This document shows, piece by piece, positions 40,245 through 51,319 of a DNA stretch of 64,000 bases. The notes under the pieces were generated by a model. That model was not told the origin of the DNA and did not search any database. It was given only the letters and a program-made list of their open reading frames with translations. Every line of letters begins with the position of its first letter. Position 1 is the first letter of the stretch. Where the stretch lies: NCBI GenBank assembly GCA_965367675.1, contig CBDUJZ010000009.1:2488-66487 (forward strand), read 5' to 3'. Position numbers and translations under genes: made by a program. The stretch comes from an uncultured Myxococcales bacterium. GTDB lineage: Bacteria; Myxococcota_A; Bradymonadia; REDH01.

Positions 40245-41108
40245 TCAGTCCGCGTCCAGGTGGCGGCGGACGGCGGCAATAAACGCGTCGGGGCATTCGC
40301 GGTGAATGAAGTGGCCGGCGGGCAGGGCGACGTGTGCGTCCGCGGGAAGGGTGCGCGCGGCGTGCGCCATCACCGATTGGCCCATGCAGCCGTCTTCGAG
40401 GCCCGAGATGAGCATCAGCGGGGCTTGGATTGGGCCGAGGGCCGCGCGCCGCGTGGCGTGGTCGCGGGCGATGGCGCGGGGCAGGGCGCGGTAGTATCCG
40501 AGGGCGGCGCGGAGTGACCCGGGGGCTCGGTACGCGCGCTTCACCGGCTCCAGGTCGTCGGCGGTGAACGACCAGCTGGGGGACCACCGGCGCCACAGCT
40601 GCTCGACGGGTTGAAAGTCGTTGCGGGCGAGCGCGGCCTCGGCGATCCGAGGGGCCTGAAACGCGGCCATGTAGGCGCTGCGCCAAAGCTGTTTGGGGTC
40701 TCGCGCGCCGAGCACACTCGCGGGCGGCGGGACGGCGGCGAGCACGACGCGTCGAATGCGGTCGGGGAACAGGGCTGCGGCGGTGTAGGCGGCTACGGCG
40801 CCCCAGTCGTGCCCGACGACGTCGACGGATTCAGCCTCGAGTTGGTCCGCGAACGCGACCACGTCTTCGGCGAGCGCGCGGACGTCGAAACGGCCGTTCG
40901 CGGGCACCGATGATGGGGCGATGCCGCGCATGAACGGCGCCGCCACGTAGCGTCCGTCGTTGGCGAGCGCCGCGCGCAGGTCGTCGAACGTGTGGGCCGT
41001 GTCCGGGAACCCGTGGAGCAGCAGCGTGGGCCGTCCGGTGGGCGGTCCGCTGACGCGCGCGGCGCAGCGCCAGTCGGGCAGTTCCCACGTGAGGGTGTCG
41101 TTGGGCAT
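40245..41108 (-). CDS. Alpha/beta-fold hydrolase
   Basis: HGFPD oxyanion region and the nucleophile elbow GHDWG. Start at an internal ATG (MPNDTLTWELP...). Confidence 0.8.
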   Translation of the reverse strand: MPNDTLTWELPDWRCAARVSGPPTGRPTLLLHGFPDTAHTFDDLRAALANDGRYVAAPFMRGIAPSSVPANGRFDVRALAEDVVAFADQLEAESVDVVGHDWGAVAAYTAAALFPDRIRRVVLAAVPPPASVLGARDPKQLWRSAYMAAFQAPRIAEAALARNDFQPVEQLWRRWSPSWSFTADDLEPVKRAYRAPGSLRAALGYYRALPRAIARDHATRRAALGPIQAPLMLISGLEDGCMGQSVMAHAARTLPADAHVALPAGHFIHRECPDAFIAAVRRHLDAD

Positions 41109-41251
41109 GGACGGTGGTGGCGCGTGGGCCGCGGAGGCGAAACGGCTCGGGCGGCATAGGTTAGACGCGTGGGGCCGCGGTGCACGCAAGTCGCGGAATC
41201 GGTGGACGAGCGGGCTTGCATCTTGGTCCATAACTTGGTCATTCTGCGGCC

Positions 41252-41890
41252 ATGAACGACGTGCAACAGGTGCTGTTTACCGGCTTCGAAACGTTCGCAG
41301 ACCATGCGTGGAACCCGTCGGGAGACGTGGCTGCTTCGGCGGCGGCGGCGTTCGGCGTTGGCGCAGAGTCGCGGGTGCTACCGGTCACCTTTGAGACTGC
41401 GCGTAAGTTTCCGTCTACGCTGAAGAATCAGCGCATGGTGGTGTGTGTGGGCCTGTCGCGCCGCAAGCGCGTGGAGGTCGAGTTGATGGCCAAAAACGTG
41501 GCCAACGATGTGCCCGACAACGCCGGTGTGGCTGGCCCGTTTACGCTCGAAGCGCAGGGCCCGGACGTGTGCGTTTCTCGGCTCGCTCCGGCGTTGGCGC
41601 GGCAGCTGAAACTGGAGGTCGGCGATGGCGTTGGGACGTCGGAGGACGCGGGCGGATACGTGTGCAACGCGCTTTACTACGCGTGTCTGCGGGCGGCCGA
41701 CGCCGGTGCGCCGCCAGCGGTCTTCGTGCACGTCCCGGCGTTCTCTACCGAGGCCGCAGCGTCGTTTGGCGAGCGACTGGGGAACGCGGTCCGAGCGCTG
41801 CTGGCCGATGCGAACGCGCCGGATTGCGTGGCCTCGGACCGGGTTGCGTCGCCGGCCGCGGGCAAGTCGGCCGCGGACACGCGAGCGTGA
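41252..41890 (+). CDS. pcp: Pyroglutamyl-peptidase I (peptidase C15)
   Basis: VLFTGFETF N-terminal motif, catalytic Cys region (GGYVCNALYY) and His (VFVHVP). Confidence 0.85.
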   Translation: MNDVQQVLFTGFETFADHAWNPSGDVAASAAAAFGVGAESRVLPVTFETARKFPSTLKNQRMVVCVGLSRRKRVEVELMAKNVANDVPDNAGVAGPFTLEAQGPDVCVSRLAPALARQLKLEVGDGVGTSEDAGGYVCNALYYACLRAADAGAPPAVFVHVPAFSTEAAASFGERLGNAVRALLADANAPDCVASDRVASPAAGKSAADTRA

Positions 41891-41891
41891 G

Positions 41892-42212
41892 CTACTCCTC
41901 GATCTTCTTCCAGCGGTCGGCGTCGCGTGAGGCCACCTTGGCGAGGTTCGCGGCGACCACGTCCTCCAGGTCGATGTCCATCGAGTTCGCCAGCGTGACG
42001 ACCGTGAACAAGATGTCGCCGAGCTCGGCTGCGATCGACCCCTCGGACTCGGAGGCTTTCTTGGTCTTCGGCCCGTGCTGGTGATTGATCTCGCGGGCCA
42101 ACTCGCCGACCTCTTCGGTCAAACGCGCGAGGTTCGCGAGCGGGGGCCAGTAGCCGGCCTCGAACTGGCTGATCCAGTCGTCGATGGCGGTCTGAAGCTC
42201 TCGGATGTGCAT
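41892..42212 (-). CDS. MazG-like nucleotide pyrophosphohydrolase (small, single-domain)
   Basis: EEVGELAREI...ELGDILFTVVTLAN MazG/NTP-PPase EExxE motifs. Start at an internal ATG. Confidence 0.7.
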   Translation of the reverse strand: MHIRELQTAIDDWISQFEAGYWPPLANLARLTEEVGELAREINHQHGPKTKKASESEGSIAAELGDILFTVVTLANSMDIDLEDVVAANLAKVASRDADRWKKIEE

Positions 42213-42275
42213 CGGTCTCGGGGGGCGGATCGGTTGGATGGCTCGGTGCATACCGCGCGGCCGCGTGGGCTCGCA

Positions 42276-45191
42276 ATGGAGTCACCGCGCCACAATCGAA
42301 CAGGCACAGGGAGCCGTGTGCGACGGGCTTCGGTCGCCGGCGCTGTGGCCCGGTGTACGCTGGTGATCGCGCTCCTATTGGCGTCCGCGACGGCGTCGGC
42401 CGAGGGCATCTACGCGCAGCGTTGGACGGACTGGGCGACGACGCATTTTCGGGTGCATGCGCACGCGTCTGTGGCGCCGCTGGGCGCAGACGTGCGCGAC
42501 ATGATGGAGCAGGCGTACACGGTGGTGACCGAGCGCTTTGGCTGGGCGCCGCGCGGGCGCGTGCACGTGGTGATCGAGGACCAAACCGACAGCGCGAACG
42601 GCGTCGCGAGCACCGCGCCGTGGAACGACATCCGGCTGTACGCGGTGCCGCCCACGCACGACAGCACGCTGGGCTACTACGACAACTGGATGTGGAACCT
42701 CGTGGTCCACGAGTACACGCACATTGTGCATCTGGACCGGGTGGAGGGCATCCCGAAGCTGGTGAACACGCTGCTCGAGGCCGAGCTGTCGCCGGGCCAT
42801 ACGATCCCGCGCTGGTTCATCGAGGGCCTCGCCACGTGGTTCGAGTCTGACGTGACCGGCACCGGGCGGTTGAACAGCGCATATATGGATGCGTACTGGC
42901 GCGCGGCGGCGCTCGACGGCACGTATCCGACCATGGGCGACCTGTCTGGCAGCAGCATCGACTGGCCGTTCGGCACGGGCTGGTACCTGTATGGCGGGCA
43001 CTTCATCGACACGCTGGTGGACCGCGTGGGCTTCGACGCGGTGGCGCGTTATCTGGATGTCTATAGCCGGCAGGTGATCCCGTATCGGGTGGATTCGCTG
43101 GCGAAGAAGGTCATGGGCGTGAGCCTGATCGCGCTGTGGCCGGAGATGCACGCCGAGCAGGCGGGGAGGGCGCACGCGGACGCGTTGGTGTCGCGGATTC
43201 TGGGCGGCGGTGCGTACGAGCGGGTCACGCGCGGCGGCAACCAATCGCGGTTTGTGACCGTGGACCCGGACGGCGCGTTGGCGTGGATTGAAGACGACGC
43301 GACCGAGTCGGCGGCGATCGTTACGTCGGCGTTCCGCGTGGACCTCGACGCCAGCGGCGAGTTCGACTTTTTGGCGCCTGATCGTGTGGTCATCGACCAG
43401 CCGCATCAGGTGTCGCGGTACTTCTCGTTTCGCGATCTGTACGAACTCGACCTGCGCACCGGGAGCTCGCGCGCGATCACTTGGGGGGCGCGGGCGAGGG
43501 AGCCGCGGGTGGGGCCTGACAACCGTCGCGTGGCGTTCTCTAGCGTGTCGGTCGGGCGCGCCAATATCGCCGTGCTCGACTTGGACACCGGCGAAGTGAC
43601 GCAGGTTTTTGAGGCGGAAGCGTGGGGGCAGGCGACGTCGCCGGATTGGGTGGACGCGGATCACATCGTGTTCTCGTACCTGCGTCCGGGACACGGCCGA
43701 GACTTGTACGTGCTCGACCTGCGCGAGGGCGCCGCGGTGCCCCTGCGGCAGCTCACCCACGATGGCGCTGTGGCGGTCGACCCGTTTGTGGTGGACGGCG
43801 CCGTGTTGTTCAGCTCGGACCGCGACGGCATTCACAACTTGTACGCCATTCCGATCGATGGCGGCGACACACGGCGGCTGACGCGGGTCGATACGGGCGC
43901 GTTTTCACCGGTGCTTGCGGGCGACACGCTGGCGTTCGGCGTGGTCGGAGGCGCGGGCTTTGATATCGGTCAGTTGCGCATGGCCTCGGCGCCGCTCGAC
44001 GCTCCACTGGCCGGCCCCGTGACGCACCCTATGCGCCCGGTTCCGCCGCCGGCCATCGACCTCGCGGCCGTGCGGGCAACGCCGGAGCGTCGCCGCGCTT
44101 CGATTCGCGCGATGCGGCGGCCGGACTGGACGCCGCAGCTCGGCTTGAGCGGGTTTTCGTCTGCGGTAGGCCTGCAACTGGCCAGCTCGGACGCTCCCGG
44201 GGTGAACGCTTTTGACGCGACGCTGCAGTGGTCGTTCGAGCACATGCAGCCGGTGGGATACGTGGGATTCACCACCCGCCGTCTGCCCATCCCGATTGGG
44301 CTCAGCGTGTCGCGCGGCTTGGTGGTGCGCGACCGCAGCCTGGTGCGGGCCAGCCGCTACGTCCCGTATCTGGAGCAGCGTATCGACGCGTCGATCGGCA
44401 CCACCATCATCTTCCCGCGCCTGGGTTCCACCCATGGCCTGTCGTTCTCGTACTCCGCCAATTGGCATGGGATCCTGGACGAGCCGGAGGTCGCGCCGTC
44501 GCCGGTGGACATCACGCCGCAGTCGCCGGAGTACCGCCGGTTCAACGCGCTGCGCACGAGCTGGGGCTGGTCGCGGGTTCGTCGGTACGGCCGCTCGTTC
44601 ACCCGCGAAGAGGGAACCTCTGTCGACGTCTCGTTTCTGCTGCGTTCGGCGCTGATCGGCGCCCAGGTAGAATCGGGTGAGCTGACCGCTGGCGTGGCGC
44701 ACTACGCGGAGCTGCCGTGGGGCCATGTGCTGGCGATGCGCGCATCCGGCGGCATCGCCGACGCCGCTACCATCGGGCCGCGGACCTTCACGCTCGGCGG
44801 GCTCGGCACCCACGATGTGTTTCTGGCGCTATACGAGTCTGCGCCGGAAGGGACGGCCCACATCCGCGGATATCGGCCCGGCATTCGGAGCGGAAATCGG
44901 TTCTATCGCGGGCAGCTGGAGTACCGCATGCCGGTGGCGAATCTGGGCGCTGGCTCGGGCACGCTGCCGGTGTATCTGGAGCGCCTGCACGCGGCGGTCT
45001 TCTTGGACACCGGCGACGCCACATCCGACCGCGTGCGCTTTCGCGAGGCGTTGGTCGGGATGGGCGCCGAGCTGCGGTTGTCGACGGTGATGGGCTACTC
45101 GCAGGCGGCTGATTTTCGGCTGGGCTTCGCGCGCGGCGTCGGCGCGGACGGCATCTGGGACGCGTATCTTTTGTACGGGTTCGAGTACTGA
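42276..45191 (+). CDS. Large secreted fusion protein: Peptidase_MA_2 (HExxH...E) domain + TolB-like beta-propeller + C-terminal outer-membrane beta-barrel (Omp85/surface-antigen-like)
   Basis: Signal peptide (LVIALLLASATASAEG). HEYTHIVH...PRWFIEGLATWFES zincin motif, repeated propeller blades (PDGALAWIED, GPDNRRVAFSSV, SPDWVDADHIVFSY, HDGAVAVDPFV, SDRDGIHNLYAI) and a C-terminal amphipathic beta-strand region ending ...LLYGFEY with an aromatic terminus. Confidence 0.8.
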   Translation: MESPRHNRTGTGSRVRRASVAGAVARCTLVIALLLASATASAEGIYAQRWTDWATTHFRVHAHASVAPLGADVRDMMEQAYTVVTERFGWAPRGRVHVVIEDQTDSANGVASTAPWNDIRLYAVPPTHDSTLGYYDNWMWNLVVHEYTHIVHLDRVEGIPKLVNTLLEAELSPGHTIPRWFIEGLATWFESDVTGTGRLNSAYMDAYWRAAALDGTYPTMGDLSGSSIDWPFGTGWYLYGGHFIDTLVDRVGFDAVARYLDVYSRQVIPYRVDSLAKKVMGVSLIALWPEMHAEQAGRAHADALVSRILGGGAYERVTRGGNQSRFVTVDPDGALAWIEDDATESAAIVTSAFRVDLDASGEFDFLAPDRVVIDQPHQVSRYFSFRDLYELDLRTGSSRAITWGARAREPRVGPDNRRVAFSSVSVGRANIAVLDLDTGEVTQVFEAEAWGQATSPDWVDADHIVFSYLRPGHGRDLYVLDLREGAAVPLRQLTHDGAVAVDPFVVDGAVLFSSDRDGIHNLYAIPIDGGDTRRLTRVDTGAFSPVLAGDTLAFGVVGGAGFDIGQLRMASAPLDAPLAGPVTHPMRPVPPPAIDLAAVRATPERRRASIRAMRRPDWTPQLGLSGFSSAVGLQLASSDAPGVNAFDATLQWSFEHMQPVGYVGFTTRRLPIPIGLSVSRGLVVRDRSLVRASRYVPYLEQRIDASIGTTIIFPRLGSTHGLSFSYSANWHGILDEPEVAPSPVDITPQSPEYRRFNALRTSWGWSRVRRYGRSFTREEGTSVDVSFLLRSALIGAQVESGELTAGVAHYAELPWGHVLAMRASGGIADAATIGPRTFTLGGLGTHDVFLALYESAPEGTAHIRGYRPGIRSGNRFYRGQLEYRMPVANLGAGSGTLPVYLERLHAAVFLDTGDATSDRVRFREALVGMGAELRLSTVMGYSQAADFRLGFARGVGADGIWDAYLLYGFEY

Positions 45192-45193
45192 CG

Positions 45194-45289
45194 CCGCCGC
45201 CTTTGCGTGCTTCCGCGGCGCCGCCTTTGCGTGCTTCCGCGGCGCCGCCCTTGCGTGCTTCCGCGTCGCCGCCCTTGCGTGCTTCCGCG
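45194..45289. repeat. Four tandem 24-bp direct repeats (CGCCGCCTTTGCGTGCTTCCGCGG x2, then CGCCGCCCTTGCGTGCTTCCGCGT x2)
   Basis: Read directly from the sequence. Starts 3 nt after the stop of the 42276..45191 gene, about 120 bp upstream of the DUF2330 gene. Confidence 0.85.
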
Positions 45290-45412
45290 TCGCCGAGCGC
45301 AACGGGCGCGTAGGTGCTTTCTCTGATCTTCGAGTCCGGCTAGCGTGCGTGTCTACGCAGAAACAGGTTACGTCGATTGGGTCACACGGGTGGGCCAAAC
45401 CAGGGGAGCTTC

Positions 45413-47017
45413 ATGGGTCTATCGATTGTCCGCTCGGCGCTTGCCGTTGGCGCCATTTTCGCCGTTAGCACGCTCGCGTCGCCTGCAGCGGAGGCCTGCG
45501 GTGGCCTGTTCTGCTCTATCCCGCCCACCGAGGTGCCCACGGCGCCGGAGCCGGTGGACCAGACGGCGGAGCGCATCATCTTTGAGGTCTTCGAGGACAC
45601 GGTCACGGCGCACGTACAGGTGTCGTACTTTGGTCCGGCGAGCGACTTCGCGTGGATCGTGCCGGTGCCCGAGGGGACCACAGTCGCGGAGTCGAGCGCG
45701 GGCTTGTTCGACACCGTCGCCGCGGGTAGCGCCATGAACGTGGTGCTGCCCGCGGCGGAGCAGTGCCCGGCGCCTGTCGGTTCGGGCGGTGGTCGCGGGC
45801 CGGCTTTCGGGTGCACCGCAGATGCCGCGTCGGCCACCGCAGAGGGCGGCGACGGGGTCCGGAGTCCAGACGGAATGTCACCGGTGACGGTCTACGCATC
45901 CGGCGCGACCGAGAATTACGAGTACAGCATCATCGGCGCGGCGCGGGCGAGCGACCTCGTCGACTGGCTGCGCGTGAATCGGTTCAATGTGTCGGACAAT
46001 ATGACGCCTGTGATGCAGCCTTATAGCGACGAAGGCATGCAGTACCTGGCGGTCAAGCTGCGCGAGGGCCGTGAGGCGACCAACATTGTACCGCTCGCGA
46101 TGACCTATCCTGGCGTGGAGCCCATGATTCCGATTCGGCTTACGGCGGTGGCCGCGCAGCCGCTGATGGGGATCCAAGTTTGGATCTTTGGTGACGCCCC
46201 GTATGTGCCGACCAACTATGCCATGACCGAGCCCGAAGACACGGAGATCGTGTCCGATGAGCTCGGCAACACGAGCTACTACGAGTGGGTCGCCCGTGAG
46301 GTGGCGGAGTCGGCGGGCCGCCTCTGGATCGCCGAGTACATGGGGGAGAATCAGACGGGGACGTTGCGCGGGCACGACGTGGTCTCACGTTATTATACGC
46401 GCATGAATCCGGGCAGCATGACGGTCGACCCGGTGTTCGCGGTGGCCAACAACGCGCCGCCTGTGAACAGCACCCTGGACCTGTCCTGGCAGCCCACCCC
46501 CTTTACGTGCGGCGGCGTCGACATGTCGCGCGTCCCGTCGGCGTGCGGCTTCAACTACTGCGGCCTGGGCGCGGTGTGCTCGGTCGACAACGGGCGCGTC
46601 GGGTGCCTGTGTCGCGAGGGCGAAGTGGCGCAGTCGATCACGGGGCCGGACGGCACGCGCAAGGTCACGTGCGGGCCGGCGGTAAACCCGTTCGGTGTGA
46701 CGGCCGAGGCGGGCGGCGTGGGCACCGAGTTTGACCCGTGCGCCGATGTGGTCTGCGGATTGGGCGAATGTGTCGTGCGCGGCGGCTTCCCGACGTGCGA
46801 TTGCAATACCGGCGCGATCGCCTGCTTGGAGCCCGGAGGGGTGGTGTGCGTCGCGGCGACGGCGGGCGCGGAGACGTTCGGGCCGGGCGCTGGTAACGAG
46901 GCGTCGCCGACGGTTGTGGCGAGCATCGAGCAGCCGGTCCGTACATGGTACGCGGCGCTGGTTGGCCCCATGCTGTTTGCTGGCATTCTGCTCGGGCTCC
47001 GACGCCGCGCCGTTTAA
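45413..47017 (+). CDS. DUF2330 family secreted protein with EGF-like Cys-rich C-terminal repeats and a C-terminal transmembrane anchor
   Basis: Signal peptide followed by the ACGGLFC motif typical of DUF2330. C-terminal CxxGxC repeats (CGLGAVCSVDNGRVGCLC, CGLGECVVRGGFPTCDC). Terminal hydrophobic helix plus RRRAV. Confidence 0.8.
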   Translation: MGLSIVRSALAVGAIFAVSTLASPAAEACGGLFCSIPPTEVPTAPEPVDQTAERIIFEVFEDTVTAHVQVSYFGPASDFAWIVPVPEGTTVAESSAGLFDTVAAGSAMNVVLPAAEQCPAPVGSGGGRGPAFGCTADAASATAEGGDGVRSPDGMSPVTVYASGATENYEYSIIGAARASDLVDWLRVNRFNVSDNMTPVMQPYSDEGMQYLAVKLREGREATNIVPLAMTYPGVEPMIPIRLTAVAAQPLMGIQVWIFGDAPYVPTNYAMTEPEDTEIVSDELGNTSYYEWVAREVAESAGRLWIAEYMGENQTGTLRGHDVVSRYYTRMNPGSMTVDPVFAVANNAPPVNSTLDLSWQPTPFTCGGVDMSRVPSACGFNYCGLGAVCSVDNGRVGCLCREGEVAQSITGPDGTRKVTCGPAVNPFGVTAEAGGVGTEFDPCADVVCGLGECVVRGGFPTCDCNTGAIACLEPGGVVCVAATAGAETFGPGAGNEASPTVVASIEQPVRTWYAALVGPMLFAGILLGLRRRAV

Positions 47018-47053
47018 CTGGTAGCGTTTGGCGCGCGACGCGTGATCTCGGCT

Positions 47054-47082
47054 TGACAGGCTGCGCGGGCTCCGCTTAGAAG
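47054..47082 (+). promoter_or_regulatory. Candidate sigma70-type promoter for rpsO (TTGACA-17-TTAGAA)
   Basis: -35 hexamer TTGACA, 17-bp spacer and a weak -10, about 70 bp upstream of the rpsO ATG. Confidence 0.25.
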
Positions 47083-47150
47083 CGCCGTCCCGTACGGGCG
47101 CTCACCATGGAAGGGCGCCGTACACCCCTCTTCACCTTTGCGAGACCCCC

Positions 47151-47432
47151 ATGGCACTCGATACCCAAGCAAAGGCTGAGCTCATCGCGCAAATGCAAAA
47201 GCGCTTTGGCCTGGCCGACAACGATACTGGCTCTTCCGAGGTTCAGATCGCGATTCTCACGAACCGCATCACGTACCTCACCGAGCACTTCCGTACCCAC
47301 AAGCACGACCACCACTCGCGCCGCGGCTTGCTTAAGCTCGTCGGTCAGCGTCGTCGTCTGCTCGACTACGTGAAGAAGAACGACTTGGCGCGCTACCGCG
47401 AGGTTCTCGCGGAGCTCGGACTGCGCAAGTAG
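47151..47432 (+). CDS. rpsO: 30S ribosomal protein S15
   Basis: [78 protein letters not shown], a highly conserved S15 sequence. Confidence 0.95.
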
Positions 47433-47480
47433 TCCCGCCTACGAACCGCTCGGTGTAACGCCGCGGTTTGTATCGGTTCA

Positions 47481-47527
47481 CCACAGCGGCGATAGGCTCC
47501 GGCCCATCGCCGCTGTGGCGTTTTTGG
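47481..47527 (+). terminator. Rho-independent terminator / processing hairpin in the rpsO-pnp intergenic region
   Basis: 13-bp stem CCACAGCGGCGAT...ATCGCCGCTGTGG followed by CGTTTTTGG. The rpsO terminator with readthrough into pnp is a classic arrangement. Confidence 0.6.
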
Positions 47528-47765
47528 CGAATGTGGTGTAGGGAAGCCGAACGTCGCACACGCGAACGCCTTTGATAGGCACGCAGCGGCGGATCAACAT
47601 AACCACTCAGCGAGCGCCGTTCTGATTGCGCAGCCTGTACTGGAGCCCACGACCGGAAGCCAACTCGGCGCGTCGCGGCCTGCACTACATGCTTCGAACG
47701 GGACGGTGATTCGCCAGATGCCGATGGTCGGCGCTGGCGTTTCGTTGAGACATCCCGAGGAGCAT

Positions 47766-49883
47766 ATGCTCAACGTACATCGTCTTACCGCGAAGGTCGG
47801 ACACCACGAAATTACGCTCGAAACCGGTCGCCTTGCCAAGCAAGCTGGCGGTTCGATTCTCATCTCCACCGGCGACTCGATGATGCTTGTGACGGCCTGC
47901 ACGGGCCCGCACAACCCGTCGGCACGCTTCTTCCCGATGGTCGTCGACTACGTCGAGAAGCAGTACGCGGCTGGCCGCATCCCCGGTGGTTTCCTCAAGC
48001 GTGAGGCCCGTCTTCGCGACCACGAGATCCTCGTGAGCCGCATGACGGACCGCCCGATTCGCCCGCTGTTCCCGGAAGGCTACAAGGGCGACACGCAGAT
48101 CACCGCGACCGTGCTCTCGCACGACGGCGGCGAGCAGGACACGGACGTGCTCTGCATCACCGCGGCTTCGGCGGCGCTCATGCTCAGCGACGCCCCGTTC
48201 GAGGGCCCGATCGCCGGCGTTCGCGTTGCTCGCTGCAACGGTGAGTTCATCGCGAACCCGTCCACGACGCAGCTCGAAGGCGCCGACCTCAACATCATGA
48301 TGGCCGCGTCCAAGGACGCGATCGTGATGGTCGAAGGTGAGGCCAAGGAAGTCGGCGAGGACGTGCTCATGGACGCGCTCGACTTCGGTCAGGACGCCGT
48401 TCAGGGCATCCTCGACCTGCAGATCAAGCTGCAAGAGCTTGCCGGTCGCCCGAAGCAGGTCTTCGAGCCCGCGACGCTCGACGCCAACGTCAAGAAGGCT
48501 GTCGCCAAGTTCGTCGGCAAGCGCATCGAAGAAGTGCTCAAGGTCAGCGAGAAGATCGCGCGCTACGCCGCGATCGACGCCCTCAAGGCTGAGGTCAAAG
48601 CGCACTTCGCCGAGACCGCGCCTGATCAGTTGGACGAGGCCAAGGCGGCCTTCGACGAGATCAAGAGCGAGACGATGCGCAACTGGGTCCTCAAGGACAG
48701 CCGCCGCATCGACGGCCGTGGCCTCAAGGACATCCGCAACATCTGGACCGAGGTCGGCTCGCTGCCCCGCGTCCACGGCTCCGCCATCTTCACCCGTGGC
48801 GAGACCCAAGCGCTCGTCACCACCACGCTCGGCACCGAGCGCGACGCGAAGATGGAAGACGGCCTGATGGGCAAGCGCGACGAGCGCGTCATGCTCCACT
48901 ACAACTTCCCGGCGTTCTCCGTCGGCGAGATCAAGATGCTCCGCGGCCCCGGCCGTCGTGAGGTCGGACACGGCTTCCTCGCCCGTCGCGGCATCGAAGC
49001 GGTCCTCCCGTCCTTCGAGGATTTCCCGTACGTCATCCGTCTCGTCTCCGAAGTGCTCGAGTCCAACGGCTCGTCGTCCATGGCGACGGCTTGCGGTAGC
49101 TCGCTCGCGCTCATGGACGCCGGTGTCCCGATCAAGGCGCCCGTCGCCGGTATCGCGATGGGCCTCATCGCCGAGGGCAAGAAGTTCCGAATCCTCTCCG
49201 ACATCCTCGGTGACGAGGACCACCTCGGCGACATGGACTTCAAGGTCTTGGGTACCGAGCGCGGCCTCACCGCCGTGCAGATGGACATCAAGGTCAAGGG
49301 CCTCCCGAAGAAGGTCATGGCCGACGCCCTCAACCAGGCGAAGGAAGGCCGTCTCCACATCTTGAACGAGATGTCGAAGACGATCGAGGAGCCCCGCGAC
49401 GACCTCTCCGAGTACGCGCCGCGAATCACCACCATCAAGATCAGCGTTGACCGCATCCGCGACGTCATCGGTTCCGGTGGTAAGACCATCCGCTCCATCC
49501 AGGAGCGCACGGGCTGCTCGATCAACGTCGAAGACGACGGCACGATCAAGGTCGCGTCCTCGGACAAGACCGCCGCGCTCGAAGCCATCGCGATCATCGA
49601 GTCGCTTACGGCCGAGCCCATCGTCGGCGAGATCTACCTCGGTCAGGTTGCCAAGATCACCGACTTCGGTGCCTTCGTCACCATCCTCCCGAACGTGGAC
49701 GGCCTGTGCCACATCTCCGAGCTCACCGAAGAGCGCGTGGATCGCGTCGAGGACATCTGTAAGGAAGGCGACGAGATCGTCGTCAAGTGCACCGGCGTCG
49801 AGCGTAACGGTAAGATTCGCCTGTCGCGTAAGGATGCGCTCGGCCAAGAGCCGACCATCCATGGCCTCAAGATCGAGTCCTAA
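47766..49883 (+). CDS. pnp: Polyribonucleotide nucleotidyltransferase (PNPase)
   Basis: Two RNase PH domains plus KH and S1 domains ([46 protein letters not shown]). Start at an internal ATG ([12 protein letters not shown]...). Confidence 0.95.
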
Positions 49884-49936
49884 GACTCTCGGCTAGGCCC
49901 GCGGTACACGCCGCGAGCCCCGCTACCGAATACGTT

Positions 49937-49967
49937 GAACGGGCGTCCGCATGTCGGGCGCCCGTTC
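49937..49967 (+). terminator. Hairpin GAACGGGCG...CGCCCGTTC downstream of pnp
   Basis: 9-bp perfect stem, about 55 nt after the pnp stop. Weak T-tract. Confidence 0.35.
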
Positions 49968-50095
49968 TGCGTTCGTGCTGCACAGCGCTGCACAGCGCCG
50001 GACAGCGCCGCCGAGTACCGCGGGCTGGCATCGGTCGAAGCGCTGCTCCGCGCGTCGGCCAAGTTGAGCTGGGCGTGGGGAAGGGGAGCTGGGGC

Positions 50096-50135
50096 AAAAC
50101 GTCGAACGGGCACCCGTGTGGATGCCCGTTCGACG
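50096..50135 (-). terminator. Rho-independent terminator of the surA-like gene (13-bp perfect stem + TTTT on the minus strand)
   Basis: CGTCGAACGGGCA-cccgtgtgga-TGCCCGTTCGACG, preceded on the plus strand by AAAA (TTTT on the minus strand). About 40 nt after the minus-strand gene stop at 50177. Confidence 0.55.
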
Positions 50136-50176
50136 TCGCGCCGGCGTCTCCCTAGACGCGCTCGCTATCTGGTTCG

Positions 50177-51319
50177 CTACTGCGGAGGCGCGGGAGCGTC
50201 GCCCGGCTCGGGCTCCAGATTCCAGGACTCCTCGTAGTACTCGATGTCGACGGCTTCGGTGATCTCGGTCTCAAGTTCACGGCTCAGGCGCTGTTGGTTC
50301 CGTCGTCGAAGAGGCTCGATGAGCGTCTCGCGGACCTCGTCAATCTCGCGAACGCCCTCCGGGCGGTGCGCCGACACGGAGTAGATTTGCCACCCGAGCG
50401 AGGTGCGGATGGGCTCGCTCACGGTGCCGGGCTCCATCTCGAAGATGACGTCCTCCACGGCGGGCTCGATGCCTCGGGCGGCGTTGCCACGCACGATCCA
50501 GCCACGGTCGCCGCCACGTGTGCGGTCGGTGCTTTCGGAGTCGGTCGATGCCACGGTCGCGAAGTCTTCGCCGCCGTCGGTGACGCGCGCGCGGAGGGCT
50601 TCGATGCGAACGCGCGCCTCTTCGACCTGCTCTTCGGTGGCGTCGGAGCGGAGGCGGATGGTGATCAGGCGTGCGTTCACACGCTCGCCTTCGCGCCAGC
50701 GGTCACGGTTGCTCTCGTAGAACTCGGCGATCTCTTCGGCCGTGGGCTCTAGCGCGCCGCGTTGACTCAGCACGTGGTCCAGCGCGAGCTCGCGTCGGAC
50801 TTCGGCGCGGTACTCGGCGCGGGTGACACCGCGGGAGTTCAGGTAGCGCTCAAAGAGCTGCGGGTTGGCGACCACGTGGCCGAGTTGATCGGACAGGTGT
50901 GCGTCCACCTCGGCGTCCGTGACAACGATTCCGGCTTCGTCCACGTGGCGTTGCAGGACGGCGGCTTGCACGGCGTTGCGCACGAATCGACGTCGGCGCT
51001 CGTTGCGCCACTCGGGGGTGGTAGGTTCGCGGCCGGGGAGCAGCTCGTAGCGTGCGACCATGTCGGCGAGCTGTCCGTCGAGGTCCTCGGTCGTCATGAC
51101 GGGCGTGCAGTCCACGGTGGCGACGACGTTGTCTGCGACGGTGGGGCAGGTGGCGTCGGTGGTCTCGCCGGACCCAGCTTCCACGGCGGGATCGGCGGCT
51201 TCAGCCGAGCCCTCGTTGGCCACAACCGGAAGCGTGGGGGCGTCCACGTCGCTGCCGCATCGACAACCGGCGAGAGATGCCGAGAAAGCGAGAAGTAGAA
51301 GAGGGTGGTTGCGGTTCAT
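50177..51319 (-). CDS. SurA/PrsA-like peptidyl-prolyl cis-trans isomerase lipoprotein (parvulin domain)
   Basis: Lipobox (LAGC), an N-terminal SurA-like chaperone region and a parvulin rotamase domain (GGDRGWIVRGN...GTVSEPIRTSLGWQIY). Confidence 0.8.
   Translation of the reverse strand: MNRNHPLLLLAFSASLAGCRCGSDVDAPTLPVVANEGSAEAADPAVEAGSGETTDATCPTVADNVVATVDCTPVMTTEDLDGQLADMVARYELLPGREPTTPEWRNERRRRFVRNAVQAAVLQRHVDEAGIVVTDAEVDAHLSDQLGHVVANPQLFERYLNSRGVTRAEYRAEVRRELALDHVLSQRGALEPTAEEIAEFYESNRDRWREGERVNARLITIRLRSDATEEQVEEARVRIEALRARVTDGGEDFATVASTDSESTDRTRGGDRGWIVRGNAARGIEPAVEDVIFEMEPGTVSEPIRTSLGWQIYSVSAHRPEGVREIDEVRETLIEPLRRRNQQRLSRELETEITEAVDIEYYEESWNLEPEPGDAPAPPQ

Follow-up and report, generated by a model that had tools for sequence, protein, structure and literature searches.

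Omp85 proteins are central to the biogenesis of the bacterial outer membrane and are targets for antibiotics and vaccines. The Omp85 barrel has 16 strands, both of its termini are periplasmic, and so are the extensions that precede it at the N-terminus. One of the ten subfamilies recognized in the Omp85/TpsB superfamily is called WD40-like (Heinz and Lithgow, 2014, Front Microbiol 5:370; PMC4104836). The main text of that study describes a TolB-like propeller that replaces the POTRA domains of this subfamily and mentions only the WD40 part. Table S2 of the same study lists domain sets of PF07676 and PF01103 for the subfamily, and Table S3 gives Phyre2 matches for each sampled member, in which the barrel is paired with BamA or TamA and the propeller with TolB, alongside a "best aminopeptidase hit" (1z5h F3, 4kxd, 3qnf ERAP1, 4fgm) at about 99% confidence. 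The account is bioinformatic throughout. In 2024 the subfamily was summed up as Omp85s with "WD40 and peptidase domains" (PMC11358297). Here we describe a member of this subfamily that is encoded at 42276..45191 (+) in a 64,000-nucleotide stretch of DNA from an uncultured Myxococcales bacterium (GCA_965367675.1, contig CBDUJZ010000009.1, positions 2,488-66,487; hereafter the window). An earlier note, made from the letters of the window, had read this gene, hereafter the barrel gene, together with the DUF2330 gene that follows it as a possible surface proteolytic or adhesion system.

The window protein has the features that mark the WD40-like subfamily: ahead of the barrel it has a PD40/TolB-like propeller and no POTRA domains, and its N-terminal domain resembles the M1 aminopeptidases. 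There is no architectural difference between it and the subfamily, and the PF07676 and PF01103 sets of Table S2 agree with the Pfam matches, precomputed and local, of its homologues. When compared with ACG73329.1 (WP_012526130.1) of Anaeromyxobacter sp. K, it is 33% identical over the peptidase-propeller part (8e-71) and 32% identical over the barrel (6e-26). The name of ACG73329.1 was "WD40 domain protein beta Propeller" and is now "BamA/TamA family outer membrane protein". Going by the style of the accessions in the published list of members, we take A9FGN9 to be from Sorangium and A7HC17, B4UC98, and B4UDA0 to be from Anaeromyxobacter. ACG73329.1 could not be mapped to B4UC98 or B4UDA0, which are the accessions of the Anaeromyxobacter sp. 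K type in that list. The window protein is a member of the WD40-like Omp85 subfamily and a divergent orthologue, which shares about 30% identity with most of the other members. Its tri-domain architecture is not new: it has been on record since 2014 and occurs widely. The earlier note had held that the system "has not been described", a statement that is contradicted by Heinz and Lithgow (2014; PMC4104836) and by the later restatement (PMC11358297).

A scan of one genome per species placed the family in at least 578 species-level genomes, most of them Myxococcota, and members are also found in Acidobacteria, Calditrichaeota, Rhodothermus, Salinibacter, and Chloroherpeton. A search of the database yielded 109 full-length relatives with lengths of about 940-1030 aa, chiefly from metagenome-assembled genomes of Myxococcota, and 87 of these 109 make up the alignment on which the conservation values below are based. 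The outer-membrane proteome paper on Myxococcus xanthus (PMC3222651) contains no identifiable member of the family. NCBI uses the family name "BamA/TamA family outer membrane protein", and the Joint Genome Institute (JGI) uses "Tol biopolymer transport system component". Each of these names covers one domain and hides the peptidase, and the protein qualifies neither as BamA/TamA nor as TolB. It shares with BamA and TamA the 16-strand barrel, the loop-6 (V/I/L)RG(F/Y) motif, the FxDxG motif, and the C-terminal aromatic residue, but it lacks POTRA domains, its predicted periplasmic part consists of an enzyme and a propeller, and its gene has no bamA- or tamB-type context. Unlike TolB, it has no TolB N-terminal alpha/beta domain. 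It matches the NCBIfam model TIGR02800 (TolB) with an E-value of 1e-18 over the propeller part only, at 67.4 bits against a cut-off of 343. There is no tol-pal operon around it, and the neighbors of its gene are MazG, DUF2330, and rpsO.

The open reading frame (ORF) runs from an ATG at 42276 to a stop codon at 45189-45191 and encodes 971 aa, one fewer than the 972 aa that had been noted earlier. The gene call is supported by the ORF list, by homologues, and by an AlphaFold2 (AF2) model. An alternative start, GTG at 42318, gives a form of 957 aa that is 100% identical to the database form P0001. The longest reading begins at a GTG at 42075 but overlaps a divergent MazG gene. Both the ATG 42276 and the GTG 42318 starts give a signal-peptide-like N-terminus. 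Counted from the ATG, it comprises residues 1-42 (42276..42401, +), with a putative cleavage site between ...ALLLASATASA and EG in the translation. These residues form a single low-confidence helix in the AF2 model, and the N-termini of homologues are similar. The barrel gene has no paralogue elsewhere in the window. Long antisense ORFs lie opposite the barrel gene and pnp at 42375-43835 (-), 43905-44813 (-), and 47685-49862 (-), with lengths of 486, 302, and 725 aa. They are shadow ORFs typical of DNA with 65-70% G+C and not genes.

The AF2 model of the 971-aa protein, built with the homologue alignment, has a predicted local distance difference test score (pLDDT) of 91.2 and a predicted template modeling score (pTM) of 0.90. 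It places an alpha/beta domain at residues ~45-312, a set of 24 strands at ~313-570, a low-confidence linker at 571-616, and 16 long strands at 617-968. The motifs of the catalytic site and of the Omp85 barrel (HExxH, the Glu ligand, the Tyr, the loop-6 Arg-Gly, and FxDxG) are kept in 79 to 87 of the 87 homologues, and eight residues, H145, E146, H149, E183, E190, Y237, R864, and G865, are invariant in all of them. This model gives good structural support to a genuine fusion, in one chain, of a zinc peptidase domain with a TolB-like propeller and an Omp85 barrel. Neither the fold search nor the PDB profile search found a solved structure with a peptidase-propeller-barrel architecture.

The N-terminal catalytic domain (residues ~45-312; 42408..43211, +) is a predicted gluzincin with the fold of M1 aminopeptidases. 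Its zinc site (42708..42824, +) consists of HEYTH at residues 145-149 and Glu183, which gives the pattern HExxH-X33-E. Glu183 sits in WFIEGLATWFE, within the stretch WFIEGLATWFES. The spacing of 33 residues between the last His and the Glu is kept in 71 of the 81 sequences in which it was scored. Tyr237 lies 88 residues past H149 and is a candidate for the transition-state Tyr (87/87). The zincin domain is the best-conserved part of the protein, with a mean identity of 36%, and a separate model of residues 40-312 reached a pLDDT of 94.8. The top fold matches of this separate model are the M30 peptidase lugdulysin (15.7) and puromycin-sensitive aminopeptidase (15.2), followed by PfA-M1, APN, LTA4H, and the tricorn-interacting factor F3 at ~14-15. 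M9 collagenases score 12-14, M61 peptidases 11-12, thermolysin ~10, and BepA only 7.5.

The fold group used for comparison includes the M1 aminopeptidases (ERAP1, APN, LTA4H, and F3) and, among other gluzincins, M30 lugdulysin, M9 collagenase, and M61. The window protein differs from the M1 enzymes in its spacing of 33 residues, compared to 18 in M1, and in the absence of the GxMEN motif, the M1 N-terminal beta-sandwich, and the M1 C-terminal helical domains. The GxMEN exopeptidase motif occurs in none of the 87 family members, and the corresponding strand of the alignment reads D-x5-N-G-x-A. Neither Peptidase_MA_2 (PF13485) nor Peptidase_M1 (PF01433), nor any other Pfam model for the N-terminal domain, matched the window protein or nine homologues. 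The sole weak Pfam signal on this domain in local scans is DUF1570, with E-values of 0.1-0.2. The zincin assignment is hence based on the invariant motifs and on the fold. Because of the X33 spacing and the lack of a match to PF01433 or PF13485, the N-terminal domain is placed among the gluzincins with an M1-like fold but outside M1 itself, though the catalytic fold is shared. A phmmer search with the N-terminal domain alone returned 4400 representatives at 50% identity, 624 of them at E<=1e-30, and most of the top matches are 940-1050 aa long. That Pfam-A has no model for a zincin domain with ~4400 representatives looks like a gap in family curation.

The second domain is a predicted six-bladed TolB/PD40-like beta-propeller (residues ~313-570; 43212..43985, +), which is supported by the model and by profile matches. 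In the AF2 model, its 24 strands form six four-stranded blades. Searched against the PDB, the family profile finds TolB at 1e-55 and, via the propeller, also S9 peptidases and tricorn, and PD40 scores above the Pfam gathering threshold in several orthologues. The linker that follows (residues ~571-616; 43986..44123, +) has a pLDDT of 53-79 and is the least-conserved segment, with a mean identity of 16% across the family. At ~45 residues, it is, in the model, too short to hold a POTRA domain. There is no Pfam match to POTRA in the window protein or in nine homologues, and there is no such domain in the AF2 model.

The C-terminal domain is a predicted 16-strand Omp85-type beta-barrel (residues 617-971; 44124..45188, +), as indicated by the model, the fold search, and the motifs. 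The fold search returned barrels of the Omp85 type, and the barrel of PlpD is alike. The barrel carries both sequence signatures of Omp85 proteins, the loop-6 (V/I/L)RG(F/Y) motif and (F/G)xDxG. The loop-6 motif reads IRGY (residues 863-866; 44862..44873, +). R864 and G865 are followed by Y or F in 80 of the 87 homologues. The second motif reads FLDTG (residues 909-913), and its F, D, and G are conserved in 83, 86, and 79 of 87, respectively. The barrel ends in ...LLYGFEY, which fits the family pattern of a small residue-x-x-aromatic. PF01103 scores above its gathering score of 24 bits in the orthologues P0002 (59% identical; 32.2 bits), P0422 (30.5 bits), and P0063 (26.0 bits), and the family profile matches BamA (4k3c) at 7e-4.

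Most of what the earlier note had predicted for this chain is borne out. Structure prediction, fold search, and conservation all agree with its zincin, its propeller of six to seven blades, and its 16-strand Omp85 barrel without POTRA domains, and the third zinc ligand on which it depended is present as E183 in 87/87. Its label "Peptidase_MA_2-type" has no support at the level of hidden Markov models (HMMs) in the window protein or nine homologues. The HMM matches that it proposed as a check gave a divided outcome, since PD40 and PF01103 rise above gathering in orthologues but not in the window protein, and Peptidase_MA_2 appears in none of the proteins scanned.

In our view, the protein is probably an active zinc peptidase that is anchored in the outer membrane and faces the periplasm, as a member of the WD40-like Omp85 proteins. 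It would be exported by the Sec pathway, its signal peptide would be removed, and its C-terminal 16-strand barrel would then be inserted into the outer membrane. The zincin-propeller module would hang into the periplasm on the poorly conserved ~45-residue linker and take the place of the POTRA domains, with the M1-like gluzincin packed against the six-bladed propeller. The even number of strands and the periplasmic position of both barrel ends in Omp85 proteins in general would place the module in the periplasm, and by this analogy the Omp85 topology argues for a periplasmic rather than a surface location. Since the catalytic set (HExxH, the Glu ligand, and the candidate Tyr) is complete and invariant, we infer real peptidase activity. 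Because the amino-terminus-binding GxMEN motif is missing, the sequence points most likely to an active endo- or oligopeptidase rather than an aminopeptidase. The propeller would bind substrates or limit their access, by analogy with the S9 family (prolyl oligopeptidase and acylaminoacyl peptidase) and with tricorn. In these enzymes a PD40-type propeller is also joined to a peptidase domain, but the catalytic domain of the window protein is a predicted zincin and not a serine hydrolase, and gating by the propeller is proposed here by analogy. The likely role would be housekeeping proteolysis of envelope proteins or peptides on the periplasmic side of the outer membrane.

Several points weigh against this proposal. 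The N-terminal domain is recognized by no Pfam profile in the window protein or nine homologues, and it found no match in a sequence profile search of the PDB. In local scans, the window protein itself stays below the Pfam threshold for PD40 and has no match to PF01103 at E<=1. The periplasmic topology is deduced from general knowledge of Omp85 proteins and from the unconserved, flexible linker. We found no experimental study of any family member in the literature searched. Moreover, the Omp85 barrel of PlpD is able to export the enzyme domain at its N-terminus.

The last point leads to a different topology, in which the barrel would move its own peptidase-propeller passenger to the cell surface in the manner of type Vd secretion. 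The passenger might then be released and serve as a protease in nutrition or predation, a possibility that Heinz and Lithgow raised for enzyme-fused Omp85s (PMC4104836). The Omp85-type barrel is PlpD-like, the enzyme domain is N-terminal to it as in PlpD, and many of the hosts are predatory Myxococcota or Bradymonadales. However, PlpD is a patatin lipase that keeps one POTRA domain between passenger and barrel, whereas the window protein combines a zinc peptidase with a propeller and has no match to patatin or POTRA. The linker, which is short, of low confidence, and 16% identical, is ill-suited as an element that traverses the pore, and the passenger would be ~530 residues long and would contain a closed propeller. 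Family members are known as well from the non-predatory groups named above, namely Acidobacteria, Calditrichaeota, Rhodothermus, Salinibacter, and Chloroherpeton. We regard self-export as rather unlikely. The same authors (PMC4104836) proposed an analogy with a fusion of BamA and BamB, according to which the protein would mainly serve in the assembly or quality control of outer-membrane proteins. The propeller would offer BAM partners or substrates a place to dock, the barrel would engage beta-signals, and the zincin would degrade stalled clients as BepA does. The retained loop-6 RG(Y/F), FxDxG, and C-terminal small residue-x-x-aromatic are in line with this, as is a gene for a SurA-like periplasmic chaperone and peptidyl-prolyl isomerase (PPIase; SurA_N_3 and Rotamase domains; 50177-51319, -) within 5 kb downstream of the barrel gene. 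A SurA-like gene is also near the barrel orthologues in L003 and L005. This proximity probably reflects shared synteny around rpsO-pnp and not a functional link, and we consider a main role in assembly or quality control unlikely. In a bolder reading, the family would be a self-contained machine for envelope quality control or processing, in which the barrel captures clients that bear beta-signals or are close to the membrane and passes them to its own propeller-gated zinc peptidase, or else a POTRA-less type V system that displays the zincin-propeller module on the surface. We put this forward tentatively, as an unlikely reading. If the quality-control machine were true, the N-terminal domain would be the founder of a peptidase family that still awaits curation. 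Our preference stays with the periplasm-facing peptidase.

The two-gene surface system suggested by the earlier note can be judged from the gene order. The DUF2330 gene (45413..47017, +; alternative start TTG at 45377) encodes a protein of 534 aa that matches PF10092 at 3e-20. As the note had said, this protein contains an ACGGLFC motif, EGF-like cysteines (two EGF-like blocks in the part from residue 366 to 479, which has 14 Cys), and a hydrophobic anchor at the C-terminus, here a hydrophobic helix followed by RRRAV. In the window, the barrel and DUF2330 genes are adjacent on the same strand, 221 bp apart, and this adjacency is what speaks for a joint system. Eighty loci with 6-kb flanks were fetched from the species-level scan and 84 related loci were examined in all, with at least 2 kb of downstream sequence in 68 and at least 2 kb of upstream sequence in 70. 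No DUF2330 gene was detected within 6 kb of the barrel gene at any of the 84 loci by tblastn, and none was detected with an HMM built from 90 homologues, whose positive control gave 5e-213. In the five loci with the closest orthologues, L001-L005 (39-59% identical), the order is MazG, barrel gene, rpsO, pnp, and rpsO comes directly after the barrel gene. DUF2330 orthologues (55-58% identity) are found in another setting that is itself conserved, flanked by Pyr_redox_2 and PNP_UDP_1/cytidine deaminase, and the genes that flank DUF2330 in relatives are absent from the window. Both genes have orthologues in sample ERZ28772003, and these are on separate contigs. Since the spacer 3' of DUF2330 in the window aligns with the spacer directly 3' of the barrel gene in relatives, the DUF2330 gene and its repeat-bearing spacer are a lineage-specific insertion that separates the barrel gene from the promoter and leader of rpsO. 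The DUF2330 gene is not a conserved partner of the barrel gene, the refutation that the note had set for itself (two genes that are not neighbors in other genomes) is what was found, and a joint system is highly improbable. No other conserved partner gene emerged either: the best cluster of flanking ORFs is a generic response regulator at 18 of 83 loci. The barrel gene behaves as a stand-alone gene.

The subfamily is of interest beyond this locus. It is a widespread group of Omp85 proteins in which the POTRA domains are swapped for a conserved and, judged by its residues, apparently active zinc peptidase together with a TolB-like propeller. Its topology and substrates would tell whether Omp85 barrels also anchor or gate proteolysis in the envelope. 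The window adds one more divergent member to the family and removes a spurious two-gene "system", and the family as a whole is a reasonable target for experiments.

The DUF2330 family has 188 homologues, chiefly from Myxococcota, and is not named in any paper of the literature searched. The C-terminal helix and RRRAV of the window's DUF2330 protein resemble the tail of a sorting signal, and one homologue carries the JGI label "MYXO-CTERM domain-containing". No NCBIfam model matched at E<=1. In L085 (1-6457), L086 (1-6852), and L087 (1-6855), DUF2330 orthologues adjoin a conserved block that comprises Pyr_redox_2, a 945-aa protein with HEAT repeats and a T2SSE ATPase, a second T2SSE ATPase, and a large unannotated gene. 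This block may be the native context of this DUF2330 family.

Upstream of the barrel gene are genes for a metallophosphoesterase, an alpha/beta hydrolase, a pyroglutamyl peptidase, and MazG, and downstream of DUF2330 are rpsO, pnp, and the SurA-like PPIase. A 24-bp tandem repeat (45195..45295) begins just past the stop codon of the barrel gene. Tandem Repeats Finder (TRF) reports 4.2 copies at 97% identity. The earlier note had counted four perfect 24-bp repeats. There are indeed four full units, followed by a partial fifth, but they are not perfect: units 1 and 2 are identical to each other, as are units 3 and 4, and the two variants differ at 2 positions. No further copies occur in the window. 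The RNA of the repeat folds no better than shuffled sequences (z +1.16). A terminator, a promoter, and a structured RNA were considered for the repeat and set aside, as it has no consensus site and an unexceptional fold. It may be a by-product of the insertion of DUF2330.

The 133-bp spacer between the DUF2330 stop codon and rpsO (47018..47150, +) contains a promoter-like TTGACA box and a 5' leader hairpin. It shares the box, the hairpin, and CCTTTGCGAGG with the spacer between the barrel gene and rpsO of relatives. The aligned leaders are at 8881-9036 in L001, 8830-8947 in L002, 8911-9094 in L003, and 8854-8987 in L005. Rfam gave no match in 41000-50500. Across the five sequences, 8 of the 17 pairs predicted for the leader hairpin, whose core is GCTCnCCATGGGAGGGC, show compensatory changes. 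The conserved region may be an autoregulatory leader for S15 that is specific to this lineage.

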